Shown here: piece after piece, positions 1-36,725 of the stretch
Layout: the number at the start of each line of letters is the position of its first letter
Numbering within the stretch: position 1 is the first letter of the stretch
Virus record (IMG/VR): IMGVR_UViG_3300028048_000077
Coordinates: 1 to 64,000 of that record
Origin: a virus
Lineage: Duplodnaviria > Caudoviricetes
DNA length: 64,000 bases
Reading direction: 5' to 3' (one strand)
Notes under the pieces: generated by a model
Seen by the model: only the letters and a program-made list of their open reading frames with translations
What the model was told of the DNA's origin: nothing
Database searches by the model: none
Made by a program: the position numbers and the translations under genes

Positions 1-266
1 CTCTAAAAGCAAAATCTATTGTACATACATTTGAATTTATATATGATTTTAATGAAGTATTTGTGAATCCATATTTTCCATAATCATTACGATAAGAATG
101 TGCTGCATATACATCTCCCCCCCCCCCTATAACTACCTACTTTTGTATATATTCCTTTTACATCTTCTAAATTATAATTACCACAAGCATCATTTGCATT
201 TCCATCAAATGAATAATACGATACTGTATTTTCATCCACCATTTCGGAAACTGTTGGAAATCTCAT
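1..266 (-). pseudogene. ConA/LamG-like protein, class B paralog, frameshifted at a G11 tract (runs off the window start)
   Basis: ATG at 266 gives MRFPTVSEMVDENTVSYYSFDGNANDACG, homologous to 2754-3461. C11 at 117-127 leads to an early TAA; G10 restores ...GDVYAAHSYRNDYGKYGFTNTSLKSYINSNVCTIDFAFR, matching FINSNACTIDLAF in the paralog. Confidence 0.85.
117..127 (-). repeat. G11 homopolymer, intragenic, out of frame
   Basis: C11 on the + strand. Confidence 0.95.
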
Positions 267-272
267 TATATA

Positions 273-925
273 TCATTCCTTTTTATATCCATATAAATCA
301 TATTCATCTTCATATAAATTATTATATTCTGGATCAAATGATTGATTAACACTAAATTCTTTAGTAATTGGCTTAGAATATATACTTAATCTTTTTATTT
401 TACAATTAGTGTAAGACCCTCCAGATACCCAAGGATCATTACCACCTATATCGAAAAACAAATTATTTATCATAGAACCTGCTGAATTTGCTACAGCACA
501 TAATTTTCCATCAGTAAAAAATCTTACAATATTTTTATTTTCAACAGATACTGTATATCTTCTCCAAGTGTTTATAGGATAACTTATACGCTGGATAATT
601 TGATCAAAATTTCTACCATCATATCCACTACTTTCTTCTATTTTAAATCCAAGATTATTTGAAGTCCAATATGCATTTAATCTTGGATAGTTGCCTTTAT
701 ATTTTATTGGGTAAATAAAATAATCTAATGTATATTCTCGTAAAGTAAAAGATTTAGTCCAATTAAAATTAAAAGTTAAAGTAGAATTAGTTAGAGTACA
801 TTCCCCCCCCCAACTGAAGGGATAGAACCATAATAACTATAGTAAGATTCGTATGTATTGAATTTATCTTTTAATGCATTAGAATTATCATTAAATTCTA
901 ATCGTGAAATACAATTAAGATTCAT
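273..925 (-). pseudogene. ConA/LamG-like protein, class A paralog, frameshifted at a G9 tract
   Basis: GGGAG SD then ATG at 925: MNLNCISRLEFNDNSNALKDK...PSVGGG. C9 at 803-811 leads to TAA three codons later; G10 opens a 217-aa frame that joins ORF 273-473 and aligns with 2086-2742. Confidence 0.85.
803..811 (-). repeat. G9 homopolymer, intragenic, out of frame
   Basis: C9 on the + strand. Confidence 0.95.
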
Positions 926-969
926 AATTTTACACTCCCATATTTAGTTTTATTCAAAGGTCAAAACAT

Positions 970-998
970 ATCCCTCTACCTATTTAAGGTAGAGGGAT
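970..998. terminator. Hairpin of the CCCTCTACC/GGTAGAGGG family
   Basis: ATCCCTCTACC-N7-GGTAGAGGGAT just after the stop of 1004-1402. Confidence 0.75.
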
Positions 999-1003
999 GT
1001 ATT

Positions 1004-1402
1004 TTATTCTTCTGGTTTTTCCCAGCTAATAGAATTTACAAAATATACTTTGTCTACTCCATTACTCTGTTTGATAGTCATAGTATTAATAAAGACTCTA
1101 TATTTAAGATCTGTTATTTTTTTCATTACTTCTTCATTCATTAATCTTCCATCATTGAATACTATATTCAATTCATATTTACCTTCATCAGCATATATCT
1201 CTACACACTCAAGTATATACTTTATGAGCTCATCAATTTTATTTTCATCTCTTAATCTAGTACATTTTCTATTAATACTATATTCTCTTTTTTCATCCCA
1301 ATCATTCTTATTATCTGCTAATCCAGCAGCATCCATAGCAGTCAATACATTTTTTACCACAGTATTCATTTCTTCCATTATATTTTTCCTCCTGATCCCC
1401 AT
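1004..1402 (-). CDS. hypothetical protein
   Basis: ORF track; followed by a terminator hairpin; true start may be the downstream Met. Confidence 0.75.
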   Translation of the reverse strand: MGIRRKNIMEEMNTVVKNVLTAMDAAGLADNKNDWDEKREYSINRKCTRLRDENKIDELIKYILECVEIYADEGKYELNIVFNDGRLMNEEVMKKITDLKYRVFINTMTIKQSNGVDKVYFVNSISWEKPEE

Positions 1403-1464
1403 AAATATAACAATAGACCTATTGAAAATAGTAATAATAACACGTCATCCATTTATATTTCTCC

Positions 1465-1818
1465 TTAGATTTTCTCTATTATTTTCTTCATATCTTCTTT
1501 ATGTTTTTGTAATTTATCATCTACAATAGCTTCCATTTTATTTTTAATCATTAGATCAAATCTTTCAGCGTTAGTTTGAAATGCTATTTTCATAAAATCA
1601 TCTAGTTCAAGATGTTTTAATCTTGTTTCAAGATCATCTATTCTTTTCTCTACATGATCTAACTCATATCTTAAAAGACCAAATAAGATAAATAATATTC
1701 CTATAAAAAGTCCTGATACCACATATCCACCCATTAGTATATCCTCCTTAAATAGATTCCAATTTATTTTCCTATAGTTTTTCTTTTTTATACATTTCCA
1801 TCTTCCCAATGGCTCCAA
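1465..1818 (-). CDS. hypothetical membrane-anchored coiled-coil protein
   Basis: Hydrophobic segment GGYVVSGLFIGILFILFGLL then a coiled coil; AGGAGG SD suggests a start near 1734. Confidence 0.7.
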   Translation of the reverse strand: MEPLGRWKCIKKKNYRKINWNLFKEDILMGGYVVSGLFIGILFILFGLLRYELDHVEKRIDDLETRLKHLELDDFMKIAFQTNAERFDLMIKNKMEAIVDDKLQKHKEDMKKIIEKI

Positions 1819-1991
1819 TCTATTTTTATCATATCAGATGTTCTTTCTATTTTAAATCCTACATCTTCAAAATATTTAAAATCTACTAAAGTTTCAAAGA
1901 AATCTGGATCTTGTATTTCTATATATGTATATCCATTATTATTAACTTTATCTATTTGCTCTAAAAAGAAACTTGTCATATTTTCTTTCAT
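1788..1991 (-). CDS. hypothetical protein
   Basis: ORF track, operon context. Confidence 0.65.
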   Translation of the reverse strand: MKENMTSFFLEQIDKVNNNGYTYIEIQDPDFFETLVDFKYFEDVGFKIERTSDMIKIDWSHWEDGNV

Positions 1992-2055
1992 AGACTCAGC
2001 CCCTATTATATTCTGACTTTTATATAAGTGTAGAATTTAGTGTAATAAGTTACAA

Positions 2056-2085
2056 TTCCCCGAGTAATCGGGGGGGGGTAATTGA
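2056..2085 (+). promoter_or_regulatory. Poly-G ribosome-binding-site hairpin (C4-GA-GTAA-TC-G9-TAATTGA-ATG)
   Basis: G9 at 2070-2078, 7 nt before the ATG at 2086; near-identical copy at 3472-3504. Confidence 0.8.
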
Positions 2086-2742
2086 ATGTTTTTAGAAATG
2101 TTGCATTATTTAGCTTGTGATGATCCATCAAATCCATTAAAAGATAAAGTGGAGGATGGTAATTTATCATCTTTATATGAAGTTTGGGGTGACCCTCCTA
2201 TAGTTCAATCTGATAAATCGTTATATTTAAATCATACTAGCTTACAGTTTAATAGAAATTATTCAAGTATTACAAATAATATGAATTTTACATTTGATAT
2301 GTGGCATAAACGAATTGAAAATGCTCGTACTAATGTATTTTTAGGATTCGGAAATGGAACTTCTTATGTAATTTATATGGCTGGTGGTGGAGCACCAGGA
2401 ATGTATAGTAAAAATTATATAGCTATAAAATATTGGAATGGAGATACATTTGGGTTTGATCATAATTGGCATAGATGGACATTTTCTCATAATCTAAATG
2501 ATAGTACATATAAATATAGAATATTTTTAGATGGAAAATTACTTGGAGCTTTTAATAGTGGTACAAATTTATATTTTGTTATAAATGGTGATTCACCAGA
2601 ATATGGTACTTATAGAGGAGTTGCATACATTAAAAATCTTGGAATATATGGCACTCCAGTTACACAAGAATTTGATATCAATGAAAGATTTGATGAAGGG
2701 CGATATGCTCTTTATAAAAATAATTATTATATGTATGGATAA
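2086..2742 (+). CDS. ConA/LamG-like putative receptor-binding protein, class A (intact)
   Basis: NFTFDMW...WHRWTFS...RIFLDGKLL pattern of LamG beta-sandwiches; shared C-terminal YG motif. Confidence 0.7.
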   Translation: MFLEMLHYLACDDPSNPLKDKVEDGNLSSLYEVWGDPPIVQSDKSLYLNHTSLQFNRNYSSITNNMNFTFDMWHKRIENARTNVFLGFGNGTSYVIYMAGGGAPGMYSKNYIAIKYWNGDTFGFDHNWHRWTFSHNLNDSTYKYRIFLDGKLLGAFNSGTNLYFVINGDSPEYGTYRGVAYIKNLGIYGTPVTQEFDINERFDEGRYALYKNNYYMYG

Positions 2743-2753
2743 AGGTGATATAA

Positions 2754-3461
2754 ATGAGAATACCTACTATATCTCAAATGGTAGATGAAAATACAATAGC
2801 ATATTATCCATTAGATGGTAATTTAAATGACGCTTGTGGTAGTTATAATTTATCAATTAGATCAAGTGGAGATACGATTTGGTGGACTGATATTGGTCAT
2901 TATAGTGGTGGCGGAGAAGCTAAAGCAGTAGCAAGTAGTAGATACTTATATAACTCATCATTAGGATCATTTATAAATTCAAATGCTTGTACTATTGATT
3001 TAGCATTTAATTGGATAAGCCCACAAAATTATAATGTACCAAGTTTATTAAATGCTGGTAGTGGAAATAGTACGTATAATTTAGTAGTTACAAGTAGTGA
3101 AGGTAAATTTGGAGCAAGTTTTAATACACTTCATAATCTAAATAATTCTGGACCATCAGTACCATTTTCTCAAATATATAATAATGGTTATCATCATTTT
3201 GCACTTATTAGAAATAGTAATGTTAGTTTTTCATTTTTCTTAGATGGTAAAAATTTAGGTACTTATAGTTGGAGTTATGGAGTTACTATGAGTAACTTTA
3301 ATTTTAGTGATGGTATGTATTATCATCAATTTGATATAATGTATATAAGAGTATCTAAAGGTATTAGATGGACTGAAGATTTTATAGGTGGTACTCCTAT
3401 AGATGATTTATTTTATACAGTAAAAGAAAAAGATAATGATGCATATGGATTAATATCATAA
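2754..3461 (+). CDS. ConA/LamG-like putative receptor-binding protein, class B (intact)
   Basis: AYYPLDGN, TIDLAFNW, YHHFALIR, FFLDGK, IRVSKGIRWTEDF, typical of phage LamG domains. Confidence 0.75.
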   Translation: MRIPTISQMVDENTIAYYPLDGNLNDACGSYNLSIRSSGDTIWWTDIGHYSGGGEAKAVASSRYLYNSSLGSFINSNACTIDLAFNWISPQNYNVPSLLNAGSGNSTYNLVVTSSEGKFGASFNTLHNLNNSGPSVPFSQIYNNGYHHFALIRNSNVSFSFFLDGKNLGTYSWSYGVTMSNFNFSDGMYYHQFDIMYIRVSKGIRWTEDFIGGTPIDDLFYTVKEKDNDAYGLIS

Positions 3462-3471
3462 TAAAATTATT

Positions 3472-3504
3472 TTCCCCCGAGTAATCGGGGGGGGGGGTAA
3501 TTGA
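3472..3504 (+). promoter_or_regulatory. Poly-G ribosome-binding-site hairpin (C5-GA-GTAA-TC-G11-TAATTGA-ATG)
   Basis: G11 at 3487-3497; duplicate of 2056-2085. Confidence 0.8.
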
Positions 3505-4272
3505 ATGAATATACGAGGAACTGAATATTATGATGCTATAAGCTGGGAAAGTGGATATACTAATGCAACAGTTAAATCTTTTTTAAAATGGGGAGTATAT
3601 CCAGTAAATGCTAGTAGTTTATATGCATATAATGGGTTATATTTACATGAGTTATTTATAGACTATTCACAATTTAATGGAGATACTTTATGTTTAAATT
3701 TTAAATTATATATAATTAAAGATAGTATATCATACTCTACGTATACATCTGATAATAGAGTATATTTGGCTAATCATGTTTGTTTTGTACAATCTCAATT
3801 ATATAATGGATATTCAGTACAACATGAAAAAATTTATAGTTATAATGATGCATATAATTTATTCTTTAATGGCTATAATAATAGTTATGCTGGATATTCT
3901 AACTATACTTTTTCAGTAGAACAAACTGGCCATAACCAATATATGTTATATAGTCATGCAGGATCAAGAAGTAATTTAGTGAACTTTTTACAAAGTGGAT
4001 ATCATATATATTCAATATTATTTAAAAATGGAACAATATCATATATAATAGATGGTGTTATAAAGAAAACTATATCTTGTCCTTTATTAAAATATTTTAT
4101 ATTATTTGGAGCTGTAAGAAGCGGTCATACTTCTAAAATTCAGGAAAATGCTGGAGCATTACAATGGGTTACATTTACTGATAATATATGTTTAGATTTT
4201 CCTACACCACCATATACATTAGAAGAGAAAGATAATGAAGTATATGGATATAAAAAAGAAATAGATGAATAA
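3505..4272 (+). CDS. ConA-like putative receptor-binding protein, class C (intact)
   Basis: YHIYSILFKNGTISYIIDG; C-terminus PPYTLEEKDNEVYGYKKE; paralog of 35253-35992. Confidence 0.65.
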   Translation: MNIRGTEYYDAISWESGYTNATVKSFLKWGVYPVNASSLYAYNGLYLHELFIDYSQFNGDTLCLNFKLYIIKDSISYSTYTSDNRVYLANHVCFVQSQLYNGYSVQHEKIYSYNDAYNLFFNGYNNSYAGYSNYTFSVEQTGHNQYMLYSHAGSRSNLVNFLQSGYHIYSILFKNGTISYIIDGVIKKTISCPLLKYFILFGAVRSGHTSKIQENAGALQWVTFTDNICLDFPTPPYTLEEKDNEVYGYKKEIDE

Positions 4273-4280
4273 AAAAGAAA

Positions 4281-4305
4281 ATCCCTACCCAAATTGGGTA
4301 GGGAT
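4281..4305. terminator. Bidirectional terminator hairpin
   Basis: ATCCCTACCC-AAATT-GGGTAGGGAT between convergent genes. Confidence 0.8.
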
Positions 4306-4310
4306 ACTTT

Positions 4311-4784
4311 TTACAGAGCATATGGGAATAGAACACTACCAGGTTTATAGCTCATATTTTCTTTAAATAAATACCTTATTCCAGGACCTACACCATTATT
4401 ATCTATTCCACATGCAAATCTATCATACGCAATAATTGTAGTACTACCAATCTTTCTTCTACAAATATCTGCATTGAACATGATAGGACAGACTATACTG
4501 TCATAATCATCCATATCTGTATTAGTCAATCTCTGAGTCTTAATATTCTGACACAGAATTTTATCATTGATTTTTAATACAAATACTTCTTGTCGGTCAT
4601 TTAACTTGTTAAGAAGATGCTCCTTAACCTTGTTAATTAATTTGGCCCTGGTATCATACCTAATATCATCATAAAGAATATGTTTATATTTCCCATGAAA
4701 CTTAAACATATCGATATTTGTATATCGGTTGCTATCATGGTTAGGTTTAAATAACCTATTAAATGGGACTAACTGTATTTTCAT
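4311..4784 (-). CDS. hypothetical protein
   Basis: ORF track, AAAGGA SD. Confidence 0.75.
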   Translation of the reverse strand: MKIQLVPFNRLFKPNHDSNRYTNIDMFKFHGKYKHILYDDIRYDTRAKLINKVKEHLLNKLNDRQEVFVLKINDKILCQNIKTQRLTNTDMDDYDSIVCPIMFNADICRRKIGSTTIIAYDRFACGIDNNGVGPGIRYLFKENMSYKPGSVLFPYAL

Positions 4785-4798
4785 ATTATATTCCTTTC

Positions 4799-5284
4799 TT
4801 AATTTAATGTGTCTGAGCTATAGATAATCTGAGGCTCTTCATCCTCACCATAGAAATATTGATCCATTACATTTTCTCCAACAGTTTTATACTCTAAAGA
4901 ATAAGATATCTCTATCTTTTTCTTAAACAATTCTCCAATGAATTGTTCTAAAGCATAAATAGGAGGATAGTCTCCTTCTAATTTTATAATGAAACAATAT
5001 TTATTTTCTATAGGATTATAGATAGAAGAAATATCTTCTACATTAGCTTTGCATATAAAGTTATTAGGATTGAACTCTTCTTTTAAAACACAAGCGAAGA
5101 AGTTTCCTATCCATTTAGAATTGGGATTATTCTTATATATATTCATATTTATTGAATGCACGAATAATCTTTTTAATCCTAATAACATTTTATGATCGGA
5201 TGATATAAAAGCTACTGTAGATTTAATATTTTCCTCCATATGAATCGCCTCCATGCTCAAGCACTTTATATATTGCCATACCAA
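4799..5284 (-). CDS. hypothetical protein
   Basis: ORF track; GGAGG SD suggests a start at MEENIK, near 5239. Confidence 0.7.
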   Translation of the reverse strand: MVWQYIKCLSMEAIHMEENIKSTVAFISSDHKMLLGLKRLFVHSINMNIYKNNPNSKWIGNFFACVLKEEFNPNNFICKANVEDISSIYNPIENKYCFIIKLEGDYPPIYALEQFIGELFKKKIEISYSLEYKTVGENVMDQYFYGEDEEPQIIYSSDTLN

Positions 5285-5395
5285 TAGTTATTACCAGTAT
5301 AGGCCACTGGATGACCATATCATGTATTATACCTGTGTAGACATAGCAAAATAATACAAAGAGCAATACCAAATCATAACCAATGTAAATCATAA

Positions 5396-5785: not shown

Positions 5786-5798
5786 ATATACCTCCTAA

Positions 5799-6134: not shown

Positions 6135-6205
6135 AATGCATCTTCCTTTCTTTAAAACAAAATATAGTTAATTTTCATAGAGAGTAGCATCATGCTACTC
6201 TCTAC

Positions 6206-6221
6206 TCATATATATAGTATA
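6206..6221 (-). promoter_or_regulatory. Conserved phage promoter motif TATACTATATATATGA (copy 1 of 12)
   Basis: Recurs upstream of operon starts at 10647, 12302, 13727, 24690, 34853, 38227(+), 42642, 54963, 56514, 56768 and 63419. Confidence 0.8.
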
Positions 6222-6235
6222 TGCTTAAAATACTT

Positions 6236-6269
6236 TTTACCCCTTACCCAATTAAGGGTAAGGGGTAAA
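6236..6269. terminator. Terminator hairpin downstream of the tRNA cluster
   Basis: TTTACCCCTTACCC / GGGTAAGGGGTAAA inverted repeat. Confidence 0.7.
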
Positions 6270-11780: not shown

Positions 11781-12305
11781 TTACATAGATTCCTTTCTAT
11801 AGAGAGTTTCACGCTTTTCTTCATCATATCCATAAGATAACGCTACCTCATCTATATCATCCATAGTAATGCTAGTTTCAGCAGCTACTACAGAATCAGT
11901 TTCTAACACATGTCTCATAAAAGTATATAGTGAGATACATGTTTTCATAGTTGAGTTATTAGTAAATATATAACTCTCCATGATATTGTAATTCTCATAT
12001 ATATCTTCTATTTGTTTCCAGATTTCCGTATGTGTACTTTTTACTTGACCCATTTCATTCTGATAAACACCATTGATTGTATCCTGAATAGGCATAAACT
12101 CATCAAGAGTAAACCAATAACGCTCATCATCAGAACCCTGAAGCAACACTAAATATCTCTTCATTGGTTCTTTTCTAGGCTTTATAGGGTTTCCTTCCTT
12201 ATCGTATTTTATAAAGCCCTGTGGTAAAGTTTCAAGTAATGGCATAAAAAATCCTCCTTTTTGTTTTACAGTATATATGAAGAGATGCATTTCTGCTCTC
12301 TTCAT
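11781..12305 (-). CDS. hypothetical protein
   Basis: ORF track; AGGAGG SD indicates the start is MPLLET, near 12246. Confidence 0.8.
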   Translation of the reverse strand: MKRAEMHLFIYTVKQKGGFFMPLLETLPQGFIKYDKEGNPIKPRKEPMKRYLVLLQGSDDERYWFTLDEFMPIQDTINGVYQNEMGQVKSTHTEIWKQIEDIYENYNIMESYIFTNNSTMKTCISLYTFMRHVLETDSVVAAETSITMDDIDEVALSYGYDEEKRETLYRKESM

Positions 12306-12317
12306 ATATATAGTATA
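12302..12317 (-). promoter_or_regulatory. Conserved promoter motif
   Basis: TATACTATATATATGA. Confidence 0.8.
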
Positions 12318-12342
12318 TAAGAGAATTTTATTTTACTTTATA

Positions 12343-13607: not shown

Positions 13608-13629
13608 TATTCATGCCTCCTATAAAAAA

Positions 13630-13659
13630 AAAGAAGGTGAATTATATTTCACCTTCTTT
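13630..13659 (-). terminator. Intrinsic terminator after the 10-aa ORF
   Basis: AAGAAGGTGAA/TTCACCTTCTT stem followed by a T-run on the - strand. Confidence 0.75.
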
Positions 13660-17026: not shown

Positions 17027-18130
17027 TTATATTTCCTCTGATAGCAGTTCAATCAAACCATCAGCCGTGATAAAGGTTTGATTTTCTTTTTGATTGATAT
17101 ATTTGCTCAGTATATCATAAGGACTAGCTGATTTATCAAATATATAATCATACTCTTGATAAGACTGATTAAGCTTCTCTACTTCTTCTACAACTTTATC
17201 ATTCTTATATGAAGCATCTATTTTTACCCCTGGGACGTTTCTAAAGTATGATTTAATAATTGGTATATTAGTATCATCATATTCAGTAAACTTAATACGA
17301 ATATTATCTATACCTTCAGCTTTCTTCTTCTTAATATATTCTATAACTTTCTGAGGATCAGAATGAAGCATATTATCAAGATTAATAGTATCATACCTAT
17401 ATGACTTAATAGGTTCAAAGTGCACATAATAATCCCTCTTTATCAAATCATGAATAAGGATTATAAAACCCTTTTCTTCTTCTTGACCAAACATCCATCT
17501 ATATGGAGATCCACAATAATAAAAATGTTTATCGAATACCTGAGGTGTATGAACATGACCTGCAATTATTGGTCCTCTACAACAAGCAAAATGTTCCATA
17601 TGAAATACTGGTTCTCTATCTGAAGCCAAATCTGGTACATTTTTACCAAATATGGAATTTAAGTATGTTCCGTGGAGATAACAAGCATCATAAGTTCTAC
17701 TATAAAGAAAATGTTTATAGTAGTCTTCTCCCATATTATATAACTCTGGAATACAAAGAATAGTCTTACCTTTGACCTCTATGAACTTAACCTCTTCGAT
17801 AATACGGATATCTACTTCTGGTCCAATATAATGGTAAAACAGTTTTAATTGGTCTGCATCATGAGATGCAGTACCAGAGATTAAGATTAATGTAGCATTC
17901 TTTTCTTTAGCTATTTCTATGAGTTCTTGAATAAACATAGATGCATACATGATTGCATCTGAGCTTGCTAAAAATCTATGATCAAATAGATCTCCATTTA
18001 TAGAAATAATATCGAGCACTTGCAACTCGTGCAAGTGCTGCAAAAATTGTTCTTGTAATATCTTATATTGTAAATTCGGTTCTATTGCTCCGAAATGTAT
18101 ATCTGCTATATGTGCCTCAACTAAGGTCAT
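17027..18130 (-). CDS. SbcD/Mre11-like metallophosphoesterase nuclease
   Basis: ADIHFG, GDLFD, GTASHD, LHG, GHVH, YCGS. Confidence 0.9.
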   Translation of the reverse strand: MTLVEAHIADIHFGAIEPNLQYKILQEQFLQHLHELQVLDIISINGDLFDHRFLASSDAIMYASMFIQELIEIAKEKNATLILISGTASHDADQLKLFYHYIGPEVDIRIIEEVKFIEVKGKTILCIPELYNMGEDYYKHFLYSRTYDACYLHGTYLNSIFGKNVPDLASDREPVFHMEHFACCRGPIIAGHVHTPQVFDKHFYYCGSPYRWMFGQEEEKGFIILIHDLIKRDYYVHFEPIKSYRYDTINLDNMLHSDPQKVIEYIKKKKAEGIDNIRIKFTEYDDTNIPIIKSYFRNVPGVKIDASYKNDKVVEEVEKLNQSYQEYDYIFDKSASPYDILSKYINQKENQTFITADGLIELLSEEI

Positions 18131-18252: not shown

Positions 18253-20559
18253 TTGATGGCTGAAAACGATAAGAATCTTCCTCAGATGAATATGGGTAAG
18301 ATAAAAGAATTAGAGAATAATGTACAAGATTCATTAGATAAATTATATAGTGATATACATGCTAATACCCCAGAGGTATCTAGAACTAATGATTATCTTC
18401 GTGCTCGTATGCACAAAGCAATAGATAATCTGATTAACTATAATAATTCAAATGTAGGTATTTCTAATATATCTTCATTATATACTAGATTGAATCATCT
18501 TCAGAATGATTCATCTACTATTCGTAATATTATAAAGACATTTGAGAATGATTCTACAATGAATAATGTTATGGAATTATATTCTCAGAATGTATTTCTT
18601 AAAGAAGCAGATAAAGAGTATGAAGTAATTCTTAAGTATATGCCTAAGCTTCATGATGCTTTGGATACTAGAAAAGAAGCTGTATTATCTGCTGACCACT
18701 TTACAAAAGATGCTCTTAATATTACCTCTTCATCCTCTGACCTGTCCGAAGTAAACGTAGAGCATAATATCAAACAAATGAGAACTAAGTATGATCTAGA
18801 TAATATTATAGATCGAATTTATGAGGAAACAGATAGACTTGGTGAGTGCTATATCTATTGTGTACCTTATAAGAAGGCATTAGAACGTATTCTTGATAAA
18901 GATGGTAAGAATATTACTACTGCAGATCAGGATGATCTTAGTGAGTCTACATTCTATTGCTCTTTAACTGAACAAACAATTCAGACGATTAAAACTAAGA
19001 CTGGTAAGAATGTAGAAATTATAGATGAAGATGTACAGTTAGAGTATCATTCTTCTCCATCTGCTTCTTTTATGAAGAAGCATTCTGGTATTCAAGTTGA
19101 AATAAATCGTAGTGGTATTATTAATGAAGTAATTGAGACTCATGATAAAGTAAATAATATACTACATGAAGCTTCTGAACTTTCTATTACTGAAGCTTTC
19201 TTAGAAGATAAAAATATGAAAGCAGAATTTGAAGATAATCTTTCTGATGAGAAACTTAAGAAGTCTATGTATGAAGTAGATAAGATTGCTCAGGATGGAA
19301 TGCAGCTTACTAATAAAAAAGAAAGAGAATCTGCTAATATCAAAGTTCCAGGTGCAGTAGTTAAGATTCTTGATAGAACTATGATTAAACCATTGTATAT
19401 CGAGAATATCTGTCTTGGATATTACTATATTGAGACTGATAAACCTCTTGGAGTAGAACAGCTTACTTTCTCCTCTACATTGGGTGGTTTGAAACCTGGT
19501 AATACTGCTCGTAAGTTAGCAGAGCATAGAAGTGACCAGGATGGTGTAATCCTTAAGAAGATTGCTAAGGATCTTTCTGATAAGATTGATGCTAAGTTCA
19601 TCAATGCTAATCAGGATCTTACTCAGGAAATCTATATGATTCTTAAGTATAATATGGATCATAATGGAGCAGGAAGAATTTCTAAGATTCGTGTAACCTT
19701 TATCCCTCCTGAGGATATTATCCATTCTTTCTTCAATAAGGATCCTAAGACCCATAGAGGAATCTCTGCTCTGTATAGAGCTTTATTCCCTGCTAAATTG
19801 TATTCCTGTTTGTATATCTCTAATGTAATTGCCATTCTTACTCGTGGTAATGATAAGAGAGTATATTATGTAAAGCAAAATGTAGATACAAATATTGCAG
19901 GTGTATTGCTTAATACTATTAATCTCATTAAGAAATCTAACTTTGGGCTTCGCCAAATTGAGAATATGAATAATATAATGAATATTACTGGTCGATTCAA
20001 TGACTACGTAATACCTGAGTCTGCATCGGGCGAGGCCCCAGTTAGATTTGAAATCATGCAGGGTCAGGATGTTCAGCATCCTACTGAGTTGATGAATCAA
20101 TTAGAAGAAATGGCTGTAAACTCTACTGATGTTCCTATGGAAGTAATTCAGGCTAGACAACAGCTTGACTTCGCTACTCATTATACTATGAGTAATACTA
20201 GATTCCTGCGTAAGGTTTATAATATTCAGTCTAAGTTTACTAAGATTATGAATAAATTCCTTACCAGACTCTATGATGCAGAATTTGAATGTACAGATAG
20301 TGTATCTGTAGAATTACCTCCTCCAATGTATCTTGCACTTATGAACTCTTCTCAGATGTTCCAGAGTGCTAATGATCATGTAGAGAACATTACTCCTCTC
20401 TATATTGATCCTAATAGTGAAGATCAAGAGTTGGTTGCTAAGGTTAAGGCTAATATCAAGAAGTTCTATATTAAGAGCTTTATTCCTGATGATACTATTC
20501 AGCAGATTGTTGATACTACCATCATGGAACATAATAGAGATAAAAAACCACAGCAGTAA
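18253..20559 (+). CDS. portal protein (T4 gp20-like, jumbo-phage type)
   Basis: 768 aa; RGNDKRVYYV and DYVIP motifs and helical organisation resemble large myovirus portals. Confidence 0.65.
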   Translation: MMAENDKNLPQMNMGKIKELENNVQDSLDKLYSDIHANTPEVSRTNDYLRARMHKAIDNLINYNNSNVGISNISSLYTRLNHLQNDSSTIRNIIKTFENDSTMNNVMELYSQNVFLKEADKEYEVILKYMPKLHDALDTRKEAVLSADHFTKDALNITSSSSDLSEVNVEHNIKQMRTKYDLDNIIDRIYEETDRLGECYIYCVPYKKALERILDKDGKNITTADQDDLSESTFYCSLTEQTIQTIKTKTGKNVEIIDEDVQLEYHSSPSASFMKKHSGIQVEINRSGIINEVIETHDKVNNILHEASELSITEAFLEDKNMKAEFEDNLSDEKLKKSMYEVDKIAQDGMQLTNKKERESANIKVPGAVVKILDRTMIKPLYIENICLGYYYIETDKPLGVEQLTFSSTLGGLKPGNTARKLAEHRSDQDGVILKKIAKDLSDKIDAKFINANQDLTQEIYMILKYNMDHNGAGRISKIRVTFIPPEDIIHSFFNKDPKTHRGISALYRALFPAKLYSCLYISNVIAILTRGNDKRVYYVKQNVDTNIAGVLLNTINLIKKSNFGLRQIENMNNIMNITGRFNDYVIPESASGEAPVRFEIMQGQDVQHPTELMNQLEEMAVNSTDVPMEVIQARQQLDFATHYTMSNTRFLRKVYNIQSKFTKIMNKFLTRLYDAEFECTDSVSVELPPPMYLALMNSSQMFQSANDHVENITPLYIDPNSEDQELVAKVKANIKKFYIKSFIPDDTIQQIVDTTIMEHNRDKKPQQ

Positions 20560-30700: not shown

Positions 30701-31408
30701 GTTTCTATTGGTTCTGCTTTTATTCCATCATATCAATATAATATAAGTGCTGATAAACGTACTATTACATTCACTGGGTACGTTGAAGATAAGCTTTATA
30801 ATGGTAAACATGTAATATTTGAGTTCCTTCATAATAAGAACTACTCTCATATTTCTAAACATGAAATGCATTATGAGTTAGAAGATGGACAAATGGAAGT
30901 AGATATTGAATCTCCATTCAATAGATCTGTAAATCTTCATAGAAGAGTTATGGTATTCATGGGTAATACTTATATAGATAGAGAACGCTATACAATAGAT
31001 AATGTAAATAATAAACTTATCTTTAATGATTCTATGTATGGTATTACTGATAGGCATCTGACTGTAGTAATCTTCTATATGGGTACATTAGCTACTAGAT
31101 CTGTAGCTTGGTTACCTGTATCTGGATATATTCCTATTCAGAGTAGATATATGGATAGAATGTATACAAATGAAACTCTGTTGATATTTGTAAATGGTAA
31201 ACTTATACCACAGAGTTGGGTACTAAATATTACAGACAGTCTATTTAAGATTACTAAGTCTCTTACTAGTAGATATGATCTATGTGTGCTTAATGGAGCT
31301 CCTAAGATTAAAGAACTTGCTGAGAAGTATGAACACTTTACTACTGATAAGGATTATATCAGTACAATGATTCGTACAATTAAAATAGGAAGTAAATTAT
31401 ATCACTAA
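27701..31408 (+). CDS. large virion structural protein with repeated beta modules
   Basis: Repeated F-x-N/G-x2-YI-x3-RY-x-I-x3-TITF units, also seen in 47986-52689. Confidence 0.7.
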   Translation: MSAYSEVEIVHSMQTEMDAITEWKRFCTNTSESKLQKGLIPVWLDFAWKIPSDNTYFKNEEYAVSRNPYEVVIKFQKEGFSNKIFTNERDYRFIDGSMQELYDEGKTFPFLLFLDNVFIPWDKITLIKSDVYITFLINRDRDIPINSVKILSIPFNVYYNTISRDPAYGMKLFSFNQDGLYDENGDILFYSADERIGGIEFHDINTFNKYDIGIDLERYLNQDNVFIFNNDGTLYDSNSIHFNNGNLLTINHNNIKHLIVLYSIRVPKRESISTLPRNKSFTKKLLAGTKNVEDSIDLNILDRDFDFIHDKNIEYDINHATGEDYVWDTAHTKYSGLVHHMKNMNSHEFTLDEFEQDEEGFVHIRRDMYFDYPHTSYPIIFFDGIADSYINNHIDYDAHCFKFYIGDKVFEKCNILFFKSVINGKYDVHSDPDGIIDISATWIPPEEITILTDNNTDKFLYPISHTLLDTNTIQLKNPEKFANTKLYMCSKYQFIHERYVIKSNVLELSDKFETAYNKKNYMCFYNGLYINQADYEVVLPKLSNNKIKKRAIYFNFNINDGEENTIEVSENLYYYSDTSNSKKIIDVYYVSSIPGNRIEVLGDLVIECMKVYAKEDHQITFSVPKPYKNFLLTYDTFFCIQGSMYIKKERYTIDSDAGTITFVNPDDDYLLKGQSITFVYPKFKVEEELDTAIPSDNIVYYDYYTAVASADTTTITFSDYIPSATNEGILVFINSTYIDPERYIISGNTITFLDEEIEEDYKVTLAVPKDIIPYEISENNIVVETAKVPIVEDGQFEFDIPSNISHDNLFIFLGSLLLSETRYTLNGDRTKINIYNLEDNINVGQNLLFVNVKNKNDNGRFTKKLNDMHVKCIHYGVRLEEDSNTFTIPVEEFMHAKFKAYNFLLFINGTWLEFDRYTFKDNIVTLKYGFDEFLKDRWIEIVLFYKDNDYYNNFPGDPLNPGELIYWEEKCIEITNPNEFTYEIPYPNLDFMDMEDSPFLVSIGSAFIPSYQYNISADKRTITFTGYVEDKLYNGKHVIFEFLHNKNYSHISKHEMHYELEDGQMEVDIESPFNRSVNLHRRVMVFMGNTYIDRERYTIDNVNNKLIFNDSMYGITDRHLTVVIFYMGTLATRSVAWLPVSGYIPIQSRYMDRMYTNETLLIFVNGKLIPQSWVLNITDSLFKITKSLTSRYDLCVLNGAPKIKELAEKYEHFTTDKDYISTMIRTIKIGSKLYH

Positions 31409-31417
31409 AAAATAAAT

Positions 31418-31442
31418 CCCCTCTACCAAAATGGTAGAGGGG
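31418..31442. terminator. Hairpin family member
   Basis: CCCCTCTACCA-AAA-TGGTAGAGGGG between convergent genes. Confidence 0.8.
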
Positions 31443-31466
31443 GAAACTTTAATTATATTCCATGTA

Positions 31467-32447
31467 TTAACACCTATCATGTGTTTTAAGCATTTGAGCA
31501 TTATGAAATATTATTTTCTTTTTAGCTTTTTCTATGAGACTATAAAACATATTAAATTTTGACGCTATAGAGTCTTTTAAATTTACATCATATACATTCT
31601 CTATATGTAAATTCCCATATGTATCAATATGCTCAATAGACATGCTTTTACGATATTTTAATTTAGGCTGTATAGGAAAAAATCCTGCATAAAATGTTGC
31701 ATTAATCTCACTAGAATAATATTTCTCAAACCCATCGTGATATGTGTTAGTTAGGTAAGCTTTTACCCTAGGAATAATATTCTTTACATCTTCTAATGTA
31801 ATCTTTTCAGTTGTTGATTTTATAAAGTCAACAGTATGTTTATTGGATTTTATATCTATTTCAGATACTTCATACCATTCCTCCTTTTTCCTTTTATTTG
31901 CATATAATTTATAAAGATCATTTTCGATATTCAATAATTTATTAACGGCATTAATATCCTCAGTATAGTAAGGAAGAGTTACCTTTTTATCTCCATCACA
32001 ATCAATTCTATAAGAATAGATAGCATAGATATATTCTGGCTCTACCACTCCTACTGGCTTATCTTCTTCAGGATATAACTTAGATAAAAAATCTGAAGCC
32101 ACATTTATTATTCCATCTAAAGAAACAGATATTGGTAAAGTGAAATTAATTCCGTCTTTACCATCATATGACTGTTTAGTTATTTCCTTACTAATTGGGA
32201 AATTTGGCTTATTGAGTACTATCAAATCATAATCAAGATGGAATGATCTTCCATCTTTTATTTCATATTCTCCATCAGAATCGAAATAAGCTTTGCAATT
32301 ATAATACAATGTGACCTCATTAATATCTTTTGCATCACATATCTGATAATCATGATGTTTTTCTAGCAAATTTATATACATTTGATAATTCACATCATTA
32401 GTATCCAAAATGAATTGATCTCCATCTTTCATTGCAATCTTTTTCAT
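31467..32447 (-). CDS. hypothetical protein
   Basis: ORF track. Confidence 0.8.
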   Translation of the reverse strand: MKKIAMKDGDQFILDTNDVNYQMYINLLEKHHDYQICDAKDINEVTLYYNCKAYFDSDGEYEIKDGRSFHLDYDLIVLNKPNFPISKEITKQSYDGKDGINFTLPISVSLDGIINVASDFLSKLYPEEDKPVGVVEPEYIYAIYSYRIDCDGDKKVTLPYYTEDINAVNKLLNIENDLYKLYANKRKKEEWYEVSEIDIKSNKHTVDFIKSTTEKITLEDVKNIIPRVKAYLTNTYHDGFEKYYSSEINATFYAGFFPIQPKLKYRKSMSIEHIDTYGNLHIENVYDVNLKDSIASKFNMFYSLIEKAKKKIIFHNAQMLKTHDRC

Positions 32448-32465
32448 ATTACTTATCCTCCTAAT

Positions 32466-33101
32466 TTAAACCATTTCGTTTAAAATTAGTTGAGCTTCAT
32501 CTAATGTTAAATCTTCAGAAGCCCACCATGATTTATTTTTAGTATTTATATGTAATACTATAGGATTATTACCACAGGCGGTTAAATGAAAATCGCCATA
32601 GTAATCCTTCTTTTTAATACTATTATTATCAGTAGTATCTCTTATAAAAGTAAGAATATGCTTGAAATACTCCTTAGCTTTTTCTTGAGTTTCAACCGAT
32701 GGAATACTAAATCCATTTTCGAACCACTCTTTTTCAGAGATAACCGATTTATTAAATTCTTCTATAGATTTGAACCTTCTAGCTCCAGTGAATTCATGAT
32801 CCCAGAATAATTTCTTTATCGGATCTTTTGGTGGTTTGGCTTCACCAAGAAATTTGAACCGATCTTTATGATCAATACGAAACACACATTTCTTCCCAAT
32901 GTAGTTTCCTTTGAATTCAAACTTCAATTCAGGAGCATCAACTATATCATCTTTATATATCTTGATAGATTTCTCATCTGCAGTATACATATATACAGTT
33001 TTAGCAATTCTACTAAAGTATAATTCTCCTTGGAAATCGACTGTTTTATCTATATTTACAGCATATATATACATATTATCCTCCTTATACTTTACAATCA
33101 T
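32466..33101 (-). CDS. hypothetical protein, tandem paralog of 33085-33612
   Basis: Shared KPPKxPxKKLFW..FTGARR and WWASEDLTLxEA. Confidence 0.8.
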   Translation of the reverse strand: MIVKYKEDNMYIYAVNIDKTVDFQGELYFSRIAKTVYMYTADEKSIKIYKDDIVDAPELKFEFKGNYIGKKCVFRIDHKDRFKFLGEAKPPKDPIKKLFWDHEFTGARRFKSIEEFNKSVISEKEWFENGFSIPSVETQEKAKEYFKHILTFIRDTTDNNSIKKKDYYGDFHLTACGNNPIVLHINTKNKSWWASEDLTLDEAQLILNEMV

Positions 33102-33612
33102 TAAATTTACTTAGAATTGATTTAGCTTCTTCTAAAGTCAAATCTTCAGAAGCCCACCAAGTTTTTGTGTCTGGTTCTAATGACAATACTATTTTAGTAG
33201 TATCTACATCAGATAAATCGGAAAAATGTCTTATATCATTATTATCATCTCTTATATAAAAAGAAGATCTTAATGAGTTATTTATATCTGAGTATGAATC
33301 TACTCTTCTAGCTCCAGTAAATCCTTTCTCCCAAAAGAGTTTCTTTAATGGATTCTTTGGAGGTTTAACTATACCTTCAATGGTAATTAATCCTTTTTCG
33401 TGATCAATCTTAAACATTACTCGTTTACCACAAAATTTACCATTAAAAGTGGTAACCTGCTTAGTGATTTCATTTATAATTTTAAGCTTAGCAGGATAAG
33501 CTTCATACGTATAACAAGTTGTACATATAAATGGTCTTATATCTGGATCAAGTGTCTTCAAATCCTCAAAAGCTATAATATCCTGTTTAACCAGGTCATA
33601 TTTTCTTTCCAT
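33085..33612 (-). CDS. hypothetical protein, tandem paralog of 32466-33101
   Basis: As above. Confidence 0.8.
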   Translation of the reverse strand: MERKYDLVKQDIIAFEDLKTLDPDIRPFICTTCYTYEAYPAKLKIINEITKQVTTFNGKFCGKRVMFKIDHEKGLITIEGIVKPPKNPLKKLFWEKGFTGARRVDSYSDINNSLRSSFYIRDDNNDIRHFSDLSDVDTTKIVLSLEPDTKTWWASEDLTLEEAKSILSKFNDCKV

Positions 33613-33614
33613 GA

Positions 33615-34130
33615 TTATTTCCTCCTATTATTGTTTGTAAAATGTAATCCCTTGAAACCATTAAGAATTACTTCATCAGAAAGTAAAATTTCAAGAGGTT
33701 TAAATTCGGCTGGTTTTCCAGATGTAATCTGGAGCATCGCATTTACTGCGGATGCTCCAGCATCTGAAGTCAAATAACTTCTGAACTTTGGATTCATGCA
33801 AAGGACTTTCGTTCCATCCTTTCCAATTTTATTCCAAAGATAATAATATTGATCAGCTTGTCTAACTTCCTGACCAATAGCAATGATCAATTGATGATCA
33901 TTAATATCGCTGAATCTTTCATTGATTATTTTGGCATTTGTTTCAATACATCCTGTATGAATATTGAAACGTATACCAATTTCAATATATTTAGGAGCTG
34001 GGTCTTTCTTATTTTCTACAATTGAAACCATAATACTTGGTTTCATTATTTTGCAGATTTTTGGGACAATCCGAATGATATCATTATTAGTTATCATATT
34101 ATTGCACCACCTTTTCAAAAACACTGTCAT
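33615..34130 (-). CDS. hypothetical protein, possibly an inactive zincin-like fold
   Basis: IAIGQEVRQADQY resembles HExxH with both His replaced by Gln. Confidence 0.6.
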   Translation of the reverse strand: MTVFLKRWCNNMITNNDIIRIVPKICKIMKPSIMVSIVENKKDPAPKYIEIGIRFNIHTGCIETNAKIINERFSDINDHQLIIAIGQEVRQADQYYYLWNKIGKDGTKVLCMNPKFRSYLTSDAGASAVNAMLQITSGKPAEFKPLEILLSDEVILNGFKGLHFTNNNRRK

Positions 34131-34374
34131 TTAATCTTTCTCTCATTACACGGATGACAGTATCTACTGATGCTCTGCCTCTTGTATAAAGCTTATGAGT
34201 TTTCTTATTATACAAGAATAAAATAAGAGATTCTGGAATTTCAAGTTCAAATACTTCATATTCATCTAAATCTCTTCTCTTTATAAACTCTTCATATGAT
34301 AACTGCCCAGCCCAGACAGCTTTATACTCATAATACATTAGCTTTAAAAATGGCCTAATAACATCTATATCCAT
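34099..34374 (-). CDS. hypothetical protein
   Basis: ORF track. Confidence 0.7.
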   Translation of the reverse strand: MDIDVIRPFLKLMYYEYKAVWAGQLSYEEFIKRRDLDEYEVFELEIPESLILFLYNKKTHKLYTRGRASVDTVIRVMRERLNDSVFEKVVQ

Positions 34375-34376
34375 TA

Positions 34377-34628
34377 TTATTCCCTCCCAAAAGCCTGATC
34401 AGCAAGTGCAGTATTTAGAGTAGCTGGAATTTTTACATTTCCGCCAGCAATCTTTTGAATAGTTTGCAACCTATTCTTTAGAATTTGGTTTTCTTCGAGA
34501 ACTCTTTGATAATCCTCGAATTTTTCATCCTCTTTCTTATTTCGTTCATCAATAATTTTCTCAATGAACTCAATGATTTGCTTTTTGGTCATACTCTCTA
34601 AAAATTCTTTTGTTACTTTTTGAAACAT
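34377..34628 (-). CDS. hypothetical coiled-coil protein
   Basis: ORF track, AAGGAGGAG SD. Confidence 0.75.
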   Translation of the reverse strand: MFQKVTKEFLESMTKKQIIEFIEKIIDERNKKEDEKFEDYQRVLEENQILKNRLQTIQKIAGGNVKIPATLNTALADQAFGRE

Positions 34629-34674
34629 AAAAGTCAGTCTCCTCCTTACAAAAATGTGTAAATTTTAAATAGTT

Positions 34675-34856
34675 AGGCAGAATAGAAATATTCTACTCTG
34701 CCTGTACATAAAAGAAAGGAATAGCAATGAATAAGAGAGATATATTAATAATCTAAGTGTAGCTGACAGTGAAACTGAATTTGTAACAACCCAGTACATA
34801 TGAAGGAAGTCACAAAAACAAGACTTAAAATATATTATCACATCTCTCTTATTCAT
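34675..34856 (-). ncRNA. Candidate small RNA with its own promoter and terminator
   Basis: Promoter motif 34853-34868; 15-bp closing inverted repeat 34727-34741/34842-34856; terminator-like hairpin 34675-34703. Confidence 0.55.
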
Positions 34857-34930
34857 ATATATAGTATACATTTAATTTATTTTTTACCAATCAAAATTTA
34901 TCCCTCTACCAATTTGGTAGAGGGATTAGA

Positions 34931-35251
34931 TTATTTAACCATACGTTTCTTAAAGAAGAAAAAGAGAATCCTAGTAAATATATTAGACTTTATATCTCTA
35001 ATTTCAGTAACTAGTTCTCCTACATATTTATATACAATAAGACCAATAGTTTTATTATAGTTAGAACCAGGATGTTCTTTTCTGTATTTAATTATCTTTT
35101 TCAATACTAATTCTGAAATGAATTTGGTTTCAGATGTAATTTCTTTACCATAATTAGATATATGCTTTTTATTAATATAATCTAATATTTCTTTTTTAGA
35201 TGATCCCTTTTCTTTGATCTCATTATCAATAAGCTCATATAATTTACTCAT
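34931..35251 (-). CDS. hypothetical protein
   Basis: Start MSKLY after an AGGAGG SD that overlaps the end of the class C gene. Confidence 0.7.
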   Translation of the reverse strand: MSKLYELIDNEIKEKGSSKKEILDYINKKHISNYGKEITSETKFISELVLKKIIKYRKEHPGSNYNKTIGLIVYKYVGELVTEIRDIKSNIFTRILFFFFKKRMVK

Positions 35252-35252
35252 T

Positions 35253-35992
35253 TTATACCTCCTTTTTATAACCATACACTTCATTATCTTTCTCATCTAA
35301 TATATATGGTGGTCTTGGAACATCTGTACTCATTTGATCAGTAAGAGTAATATATTCTATAGAAGAATAAAGATTTCTAGCATTTACAGAATTACCACCA
35401 TAACAATGACCAATAACAAATGATTTATAATTATCTCCACTTCTAGTACCTAAGTGATTACCATTCATATAGAAATCAAATGTATTATCTACTATATGTA
35501 CACTAAAGTTATTATATTCTCCAGAAGCAGTTCTACCTATATTAATACCATTACTATTAGATTCACATAATGCATTAGAACTATTTACTGATAAAGTATT
35601 AGGATTAGATCCTAAACTAGCAAACACAGGTGCGGGTGTTCTACCATTGCTATAAGGCATAGCTGTAGAATCAGTATATATGTATTCATCTGTAATAGCA
35701 TTAGTTCCTGTAGAATTTATATGTGGCATAAAATAACCAATTTTTTCTCCATCACCACGACCATTATATCTAATTATCTGTATAAAACTATATCTAAAAT
35801 TTACCCATATATCATTACCATTAAACAAAGTATATTTAAATGCTAAAGCATGTATATATAAACCACCATATTGATACATATTAGCTGTATCTACTACCCA
35901 AGGAGAATATTCCAAATATGTTTTAGCAGAGCGGTTAGTTGTCCCCCCCCCCAATCAATTATATCATAATATTCGATTCCTCGTACATTCAT
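35253..35992 (-). pseudogene. ConA-like class C paralog, frameshifted at a G10 tract
   Basis: ATG at 35992: MNVRGIEYYDIIDW then G10 (35943-35952). G11 gives WGGGTTN, aligning with WESGYTN of 3505-4272 and joining ORF 35253-35954. Confidence 0.85.
35943..35952 (-). repeat. G10 homopolymer, intragenic, out of frame
   Basis: C10 on the + strand. Confidence 0.95.
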
Positions 35993-35993
35993 T

Positions 35994-36725
35994 CTATCCC
36001 TTCTTTACACCATACATATTATCATTATTTTCTTTTATCGTCCAACGAATATCATCCATAGGAGTTTGACCTTCAAAATCTTTAGTCCATCTAAGACCTT
36101 TAGAAACTCTATAGTTAAGTATACATACAGATGGCACTGTACCATTCCAATTTGCTTGAATATAAATAGCAAATATTGAATCGCTTCCAATACTACGTGT
36201 ATACTCCAATATCTTTTTACCATCTAGATATACTTTAAACAATGAATTATTTTCAATTGTACAAGCATAATGGTGATAATTTCCATCTTTTAGATTTGTA
36301 TAATATTTTACAAATACTCGATCTCCATTTGCTTGACTCAAATCTATAAAATTATGATAAATATTTAAATTTGAAGTTATATAAGGATCTCTAACATTAT
36401 AATCTTGAGAAGTATCATATGGTGTTTTACCAAATCCAAGTATAAAATTATATGTGGCATTATTACTTCCAAAAGACGGATCTGATCTAAATATACAATC
36501 TATAGTAGAATTTATATTATTATAAATCGTTGATCCTAATGAGAAATTATTCGAATCTAAAACACATGCAGCGTATCTTTGAATATCACTTAAGTAATAA
36601 TAATTAAATCCAATAGAACGTCTCCATGACCCACCCCCACCAACATAATCTGTGTTATTACCATCAAATGGTCAATAAGCCACTGTATTTTCATCTACCA
36701 TCTGAGATATAGTAGGTATCTTCAT
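35994..36725 (-). pseudogene. LamG-like class B paralog with one in-frame TGA at codon 18
   Basis: MKIPTISQMVDENTVAY*PFDGN; TGA at 36672-36674; the frame then stays open to 35994 (YHHYA, VYLDGK, YRVSKGLRWT). Confidence 0.85.

Follow-up and report, generated by a model that had tools for sequence, protein, structure and literature searches.

Why should an AT-rich viral genome carry long runs of G or C, and why should every one of them lie in or just before a gene of the same family? The question is raised by a stretch of 64,000 nucleotides (the window) that makes up the first half of a linear viral contig of 128,771 bp and 30.3% G+C (G000; IMG/VR record IMGVR_UViG_3300028048_000077), where the family in question encodes small LamG-like proteins. 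The answer we favour, and consider probable, is that the homopolymers are hypermutable contingency tracts through which these paralogs are switched, a form of phase variation in which the proteins would act as adhesins.

Distribution of the homopolymer tracts

A homopolymer scan of the window returned exactly five runs of six or more G or C, namely C11 at 117-127, C9 at 803-811, G9 at 2070-2078, G11 at 3487-3497 and C10 at 35943-35952, with none of six to eight, bearing out to the nucleotide a preliminary description of this DNA that had listed these five as its sole runs of nine or more. The remainder of the contig adds two others (C9 at 74762-74770 and G10 at 74939-74948). All seven runs of six or more on G000 are 9-11 long, where base composition predicts 0.013 runs of nine or more, and the family, which takes up 4.7% of the contig, contains all of them (7/7), for which random placement gives P ~5e-10.

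Searches with a family hidden Markov model (HMM) and a profile delimit the family on G000 to nine small genes (216-255 aa), all ending in a DNxxYG tail, with no others found; the count of seven given in the preliminary description was too low. All-frame translation places A1 and B1 in locus 1 (minus strand), A2, B2 and C2 in locus 2 (plus strand), and B3 and C3 in locus 3 (minus strand). Beyond the window lies a divergent pair, D (minus strand, start 74815) and E (plus strand, start 74895), with tracts ~15 codons in and the DNxxYG tail on both. Two further contigs enlarge the set. L034, a 1,322-bp JGI contig, matches window 1-126 at 100% identity and extends locus 1, carrying the B1 open reading frame (ORF) on to its ...KDNEVYG... 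end and bearing a class C gene, C1 (G10), and the start of C1b (G13). G001, a 95.6-kb IMG/VR contig, holds two class C genes, Ca and Cb, both in frame with a G10 tract at the same codon; it also has a class B gene, and 28 nt upstream of one class C gene lies a C9 run. Its tracts of nine or more are all at family loci (3/3), and its only other G/C runs of seven or more belong to two C7-N7-G7 hairpins. These two contigs contribute five members and five tracts, bringing the family to at least 14 members and the tracts to 12, nine of them intragenic (nt 41-140 of the genes) and three upstream. The members and intragenic tracts found in the window are listed below (ON, in frame; OFF, out of frame).

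1..266, minus strand: B1, 5' part of a class B LamG-like gene with its start codon at 266; it runs off the contig start, and the rest is on L034
117..127, minus strand: B1 poly-G tract, G11 on the coding strand, nt 140 of the gene; OFF at G11, ON at G10 or G13
273..925, minus strand: A1, class A LamG-like gene, frameshifted at its tract (Pfam Laminin_G_3 and frame table)
803..811, minus strand: A1 poly-G tract, G9, nt 115 of the gene; OFF at G9
2086..2742, plus strand: A2, intact class A gene, 218 aa (translation, family HMM)
2754..3461, plus strand: B2, intact class B gene, 235 aa, with Gly-Gly-Gly (residues 52-54) at 2907-2915
3505..4272, plus strand: C2, intact class C gene, 255 aa, not slippery at the in-gene tract position (TGG GAA AGT GGA)
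35253..35992, minus strand: C3, class C gene, frameshifted at its tract (frame table)
35943..35952, minus strand: C3 poly-G tract, G10, nt 41 of the gene; OFF at G10
35994..36725, minus strand: B3, class B gene with TGA at codon 18 (36672-36674) and an interrupted G tract, GGT GGG GGT GGG (36630-36641)

Reading-frame states of the family genes

Frame tables calculated for each gene give the following states at the present tract length and at the lengths that open the frame.

A1: G9 at present, yielding 44 aa; ON at G7 or G10, yielding 216-217 aa
B1: G11 at present, yielding 59 aa; ON at G10 or G13, open to the contig end
C3: G10 at present, yielding 32 aa; ON at G8 or G11, yielding 245-246 aa
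D: G9 at present, yielding 23 aa; ON at G8 or G11, yielding 222-223 aa
E: G10 at present, yielding 230 aa, in frame (ON)
C1 (on L034): G10 at present, OFF; ON at G9 or G12
Class C gene of L026 (a contig introduced below): G7 at present, OFF; ON at G6 or G9

Five of the nine intragenic tracts are out of frame (A1, B1, C3, D and C1). In every OFF gene the tract is the sole lesion, and a shift of one or two G reopens the entire ORF; a change in length alone toggles an otherwise intact frame in A1, B1, C3, D, C1, E, Ca, Cb and the L026 gene. The frame tables agree with the one-base changes that had been read off for the three intragenic window tracts (A1 from G9 to G10, B1 from G11 to G10, C3 from G10 to G11). 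Two other observations of the preliminary description also hold: A2, B2 and C2 form one complete, intact A+B+C set, and the Gly-Gly-Gly of class B is coded in intact B2 as GGT GGC GGA.

B3 carries a lesion on which that description was silent, a TGA at codon 18 in place of the Tyr codon (TAT) of B1 and B2, with the remaining 225 codons open. Recoding of TGA was considered as an explanation and rejected, because reading TGA as sense alters almost no other ORF genome-wide; the codon is therefore a genuine nonsense mutation. B3 is probably a recent pseudogene, the alternative being a single-nucleotide polymorphism in the population.

When the 5' ends of seven class C genes were aligned as DNA, the tract was found at the same codon in six (6/7), at a protein identity of 27-35%; the seventh, C2, has an interrupted version, but carries a G11 run in its 5' untranslated region (UTR). 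Because this codon is shared at so low an identity, and because just 4.2% of the Gly codons in the long ORFs of G000 are GGG, the tract appears to be kept by selection.

Tract-length variation between assemblies and samples

Lengths were compared across Logan contigs of four runs (X1-X4) covering window 1-4400, with L034 in addition. Run X1 is probably the source sample, and X4 represents a divergent strain. Runs X5-X11, outside this comparison, contain small portions of the segment.

Tract 117-127: C11 in the window; L034, identical over 126 nt of flank, has C10, at which B1 reads in frame (ON)
Tract 803-811: C9 in the window; C11, two bases more, in X1
Tract 2070-2078: G9 in the window; G9, G10 and G11 in different X1 contigs; G11 in X3 and X4
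Tract 3487-3497: G11 in the window; both G11 and G10 in X1, with G10 in three contigs (19.5 of 46.6 summed depth); G10 only in X2

The preliminary description had proposed a comparison of tract lengths as a check. In assembled contigs, as distinct from read counts, all four tracts of this segment (4/4) are polymorphic in length between independent assemblies; the other indels in the 4.4 kb are found in an A/T-rich terminator zone and at two sites in X4 only. X1 contigs start or stop exactly at the tracts, whose heterogeneity appears to fragment metagenome assembly, with gene callers then reporting 5'-truncated proteins.

Variation extends to orthologues from other samples. Among the orthologues of C1 in the protein collection (84-92% identity), P0006 and P0016 are full length and differ in the length of their Gly tracts, while P0014 and P0015 are 5'-truncated calls from an internal Met, as would be expected of an out-of-frame tract. 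A DNA pattern search for the class C N-terminus, unbiased in that no G run was required, also recovered L026 (1,577 bp), which comes from another metagenome and is syntenic with locus 3 (window 34859-37168), with flanks 88% identical. Its locus-3 position is filled by one class C gene, a different one, and class B is absent. Since gene content differs at a syntenic position, the loci behave as cassette-exchange hotspots.

As a separate observation on assembly, the start of G000 lies ~116 nt from a variable poly-G tract, and its overlap with L034 is ~129 nt, which is consistent with an assembly-graph branch at the tract that would account for the end of the contig there.

Tracts upstream of A2 and C2

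Two window tracts had been described as lying directly before their genes. This placement is correct, and the two cannot act by frameshift, as both belong to 5'-UTR elements outside the coding frame.

2056..2085, plus strand: 5'-UTR element of A2, a C4GA / GNRA loop / TCG4 hairpin with the G9 tract 2070-2078 and a 7-nt spacer to the ATG
3472..3504, plus strand: 5'-UTR element of C2, the same hairpin with C5, the G11 tract 3487-3497 and the same 7-nt spacer

The duplicated element spans 30-33 nt and consists of four to five C followed by GA, a GUAA tetraloop, UC with the G run, the conserved 7-nt spacer and the ATG; the predicted energy of the hairpin at A2 is -16.3 kcal/mol (z -3.3), that of the hairpin at C2 -16.7 kcal/mol (z -1.8). 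Stop codons occur in all three frames between tract and ATG at both genes. A tiny poly-G leader ORF with translational coupling was rejected for A2 and C2, as there is no ATG, GTG or TTG from the last stop to the tract. A normal Shine-Dalgarno (SD) sequence precedes 71 of 92 long ORFs; A2 and C2 have nothing SD-like except the G run, which stops 7 nt short of the ATG. We tentatively suggest, as one possibility that we would not yet favour, that the G run serves as the SD, with initiation tuned by how many G are left outside the stem. Both upstream tracts vary in length although frame is irrelevant there, which argues for intrinsic hypermutability. The hairpin motif was not found in a search of IMG/VR.

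Protein fold and relatives

A1 passes the cut-off of the Pfam Laminin_G_3 model (PF13385) with 33.9 bits against 27.6, and E (24.1 bits) and B3 (18.7 bits) remain under it; at default thresholds Pfam gave no match for A2, B2, C2 or C3, nor did PHROGs for A2, B2 or C2. In the ESM Atlas, B2 matches viral LamG_3 clusters (feature score 0.98, 177 shared; template-modelling (TM) score 0.65-0.72; predicted TM score (pTM) of the Atlas model 0.75). These are clusters of small viral LamG proteins, and the matches include a Phage_min_tail cluster (TM 0.72). Our own AlphaFold2 (AF2) model of B2 was too poor for a structure search (predicted local distance difference test (pLDDT) 40). Against 5.8 billion proteins A2 and B2 retrieved only themselves, and B2 and P0004 retrieved nothing from viral and metagenome contigs.

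C2 has just 10 relatives among 1.84 billion representative proteins, one match being a region of a large LamG-domain protein with a weak Laminin_G_2 match. Its AF2 model, although weak (pLDDT 55, pTM 0.63), matches only ConA-like jelly-rolls (TM 0.35-0.58), including lectin-like subdomains, GH16 glucanases, sialidase modules and, from cultured jumbo phages, small LamG proteins; matches in BFVD include a 'structural protein' of jumbo phage CBB and a minor tail protein. The LamG/ConA fold that the preliminary description ascribed to the family is thus supported for classes A, B and E, through the Pfam match of A1, the Atlas matches of B2 and the score of E just under the cut-off, and more weakly supported for class C, which matches by modelled fold only.

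Laminin G3 lectin domains of jumbo phages have been tied to tail fibres and other virion components (PMC7824862). By their fold, and by analogy with these LamG domains, the family proteins are probably glycan-binding virion adhesins or decorations, and they may have a receptor-binding role.

By eye, an (L/I/V)-x-E motif is seen immediately before the KDNxxYG tail in seven of the nine G000 family genes (e.g. window 4225-4269, 3420-3458 and 35256-35300). The motif resembles T4-type prohead protease sites; that the tail might be a cleavable targeting peptide is pure speculation.

Proposed mechanism and alternative explanations

We suggest that slipped-strand mispairing during replication of the phage DNA adds or removes G. 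At the nine tracts situated 14-47 codons into genes, such a change would toggle between a protein of 216-246 aa (ON) and a stub of 18-59 aa (OFF), and each burst would hold genomes with different ON/OFF combinations of the family of at least 14 members. The two tracts before A2 and C2, as SD-like G runs in a 5'-UTR hairpin, would probably tune translation and not frame. If the family proteins are glycan-binding adhesins, switching would diversify adsorption specificity; virions presumably take their proteins from the pool in the infected cell, so that a new phasotype would show one infection cycle later. The slippage rate, expression, virion location and receptor binding that this scheme presupposes are inferred, and the claim of poly-G contingency loci on LamG-like paralogs is supported by length polymorphism, OFF copies with a sole lesion, a conserved codon position, the rarity of GGG, and orthologues in both ON and OFF states.

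Several findings weigh against this interpretation. Because lengths were taken from contigs, within-sample frequencies and sequencing error at G9-11 are not separated, and the second length observed for A1 (G11) is likewise OFF. From the true nonsense codon of B3 and the missing class B gene at the syntenic locus of L026 it follows that some family copies are decaying or turning over. Class C genes are conserved at the DNA level over their 5' 45 nt, so recombination could carry the tract between paralogs. The tract conservation seen on G001 is between paralogs rather than between independent phages, as G001 is probably from the same genome as G000; its use as an independent phage showing conservation was accordingly withdrawn. 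Finally, the genes neighbouring the family encode topoisomerase II, helicases, an RNA polymerase (RNAP) beta subunit and a sigma-like protein, with no recognisable tail module.

Long G runs are prone to error, and with lengths known from contigs, and variant X1 contigs of modest depth at 2070-2078 (6.4-6.6 of ~40), it might be supposed that each tract has one true, mostly in-frame length and that the frameshifts and variants are errors of sequencing or assembly. We regard this as very improbable: the same tracts are present in independent JGI, ENA and Logan assemblies, two-base differences are seen, G10 at 3487 contributes 19.5 of the 46.6 depth in X1, with X2 showing no other form, and OFF calls recur across separate samples. 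Errors would also leave unexplained both the confinement of the tracts to one family and the use of the rare GGG codon. It is unlikely, too, that poly-G is a mere mutational hotspot in redundant paralogs, the out-of-frame copies being dead pseudogenes and switching having no adaptive role. The nonsense codon of B3, the loss or original lack of class B in L026, the OFF state of five of nine intragenic tracts and the equally closed G11 form of A1 would suit such decay, yet every OFF copy has the tract as its only lesion, with more than 200 open codons behind it where ~7% of random codons would be stops; paralogs of 27-35% identity preserve a pure tract at one and the same codon, the ON form of B1 coexists with the OFF form, and orthologues are ON in other samples. 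Transcription tends to slip on long homopolymers, and the phage has its own multisubunit RNAP, so stuttering of the polymerase, or ribosomal frameshifting, on G9-11 might yield a fixed in-frame fraction and act as a non-heritable attenuator, which would account for OFF alleles staying intact. We think this improbable as well, at about the same level as decay or slightly below it; length variants are seen directly in DNA, making the switching heritable regardless of what happens in RNA, and the two processes can coexist.

What the proteins do is a separate matter from how their genes are switched. It is quite conceivable, though we lean against it, that they are not receptor-binding proteins of the tail but capsid decorations, internal proteins packaged by way of the C-terminal peptide, or intracellular proteins that never enter the virion: the loci lie among replication and transcription genes, the family has no PHROG match, and the C-terminal DNxxYG tail is the only feature common to all classes. 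Set against this are the viral clusters of small LamG proteins, including the Phage_min_tail match (TM 0.72), and the BFVD matches to the CBB 'structural protein' and a minor tail protein; as genes of jumbo phages are scattered, synteny is weak evidence either way (PMC7824862). Phase-variable adhesins remain our preferred interpretation. A more elaborate version, which we consider rather doubtful, is a combinatorial decoration of the virion in which the at least 14 LamG-like paralogs compete for one docking site via DNxxYG, each being gated by poly-G to give up to ~500 genotypes, and in which two of them have a slippery SD, partly sequestered in a GNRA hairpin, as a translation rheostat instead of an ON/OFF switch, a kind of switch that would be previously undescribed.

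Genome and setting

The complementary gene content of the two large contigs, their shared metagenome of origin and G+C, a shared repeat and their CheckV completeness (52% for G000, 38% for G001) indicate that G001 is most likely a further piece of the genome of G000, which would then measure ~226 kb or more. Only 4 of 95 G001 ORFs have homologs on G000, and three of the four are family members; a DNA polymerase B-like gene on G001 is without counterpart in G000; and G001 has the same metagenome of origin as L034 and an equal G+C content. The exact repeat of 64 nt (window 12275-12338; G001 8409-8346) is probably one of the repeated regulatory cassettes of the phage. Joining the two contigs underlies the family and tract totals given above and makes a jumbo phage plausible. 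The earlier designation as a jumbo phage does not fit G000 itself, which at 128.8 kb is not above 200 kb, but such a size is plausible from contig joining and CheckV; the genome is probably ~226-250 kb and jumbo-sized, and its multisubunit RNAP beta subunit was counted toward this. Genes for DNA polymerase B and TGT (deazaguanine) were not found on G000, which is uninformative for a partial contig.

The source phage is an uncultured phage of the bovine rumen; window 1-4400 occurs in bovine-gut metagenome runs, and the habitat claim is restricted to the bovine gut. Identity with a Campylobacter phage was rejected, as there is no nucleotide or protein match among deposited phages: tblastn and megablast against 50,697 phage records gave no match, and PHROGs gave none for the family. 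The lineage is unrelated to Fletchervirus (identity of the topoisomerase subunit <30%). A sigma-70 promoter scan found background levels only.

Two terminator-like hairpins border the family genes.

968..1000, no strand assigned: bidirectional terminator-like hairpin upstream of A1
4281..4305, no strand assigned: bidirectional terminator ending the A2-B2-C2 unit

They belong to a hairpin family (window 4262-4305 and 968-1000) with the stem ATCCCTACCC...GGGTAGGGAT. Logan depth at 4262-4268 is several-fold above the flanks, with several indel variants, which suggests an element repeated in the genome or common to other phages of the samples.

A/T runs of 9-10 occur in the window at 13624-13632 and 38548-38556, and elsewhere on G000 at 66535-66543, 74855-74863, 82492-82501, 87217-87226, 89532-89541 and 113236-113244, with no runs of eight. 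Every one falls between listed ORFs of at least 100 aa, and one A9 run is within the 79-bp divergent region that separates D from E, both of them poly-G genes; the A/T runs are conceivable as promoter or terminator elements or as additional slippage sites. The two C7-N7-G7 hairpins of G001 (17966-17994 and 18325-18353), whose 7-nt loops are mutual reverse complements, flank ~330 bp beside the DNA polymerase B-like gene, the second hairpin lying within an ORF. The flanked segment could be invertible or mobile, or the two could be paired structural hairpins.

Comparison with known systems

The mechanism itself is already known from the poly-G tracts of Fletchervirus. To our knowledge, these Campylobacter phages are the only ones in which phase variation by poly-G slippage has been proven by experiment. 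Fletchervirus phages have as many as four receptor-binding proteins, two of which are phase-variable through poly-G tracts (PMC8713573, PMC10877375), and a summary of Sørensen et al. 2021 (Cell Rep 35:109214) gives the tracts as 7-11 G (10.1101/2025.10.21.683753). The resemblance includes a lytic lifestyle, an AT-rich phage genome, similar tract lengths (7-11 in Fletchervirus, 7-13 here), genes of the host-interaction type, ON/OFF switching by frameshift, mixed populations and multiple alternative proteins, although the present system is known from sequence. In contrast to Fletchervirus, with its two phase-variable receptor-binding proteins, we find an unrelated lineage whose host is a rumen organism, single-domain LamG-like proteins of 216-255 aa, ~12 tracts and at least 14 paralogs, with two tracts in a 5'-UTR hairpin and SD.

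The loci also resemble bacterial contingency loci, such as the poly-G/C tracts of C. jejuni, Neisseria and Haemophilus influenzae, which place a homopolymer close to the 5' end of surface-interaction genes and work by slipped-strand mispairing to give combinatorial phasotypes. Bacterial loci likewise include tracts in promoters and 5' regions, but here the loci are virus-borne and the phenotype would lag by one infection cycle. In phages, a 2025 preprint argues that contingency loci are widespread (10.1101/2025.10.21.683753); this work by Gomez, Barrick and Waters describes such loci in T2 and T4 and cites poly-G in BPP-1 and PB1-like phages (10.1101/2025.10.21.683753). Those of T2, T4 and coliphages share reversible frameshifts at simple repeats and bet-hedging diversity with the present loci (10.1101/2025.10.21.683753), but their repeats are mostly short (at least 6), occur in the defence-evasion genes agt and rIIA and are under-represented in tail fibres, whereas here we see long G runs in one family. 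The invertible G and C segments of Mu and P1 (Gin/Cin) and the diversity-generating retroelement (DGR) of BPP-1 similarly produce stochastic progeny with alternative host-recognition proteins; Mu and P1 need a recombinase and the BPP-1 DGR a reverse transcriptase, while the family loci suggest neither, the proposed switch being replication slippage. With the small LamG paralogs of jumbo phages CBB, Ea35-70, RSL2, PhiEaH1 and Psa21 the family shares a size of 210-256 aa, a ConA-like jelly-roll and several copies per genome, a likeness confined to fold and taken from a low-confidence model (TM 0.35-0.45).

Distinctive here are the number of switches, their confinement to one LamG-like family with a common C-terminal peptide, the SD-embedded tracts and the polymorphism in natural samples. 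The strategy would be that of Fletchervirus, adopted in an unrelated, uncultured rumen phage on a much larger scale (~12 switches in one lectin-fold family), with evidence taken from natural populations in the form of several tract lengths inside a single sample and of both ON and OFF orthologues in different samples. A practical warning is that poly-G tracts break metagenome assemblies and make gene callers truncate real genes. More broadly, these loci imply that stochastic hedging of host range or adhesion, achieved with neither recombinase nor DGR, may be a general strategy of phages in gut ecosystems.

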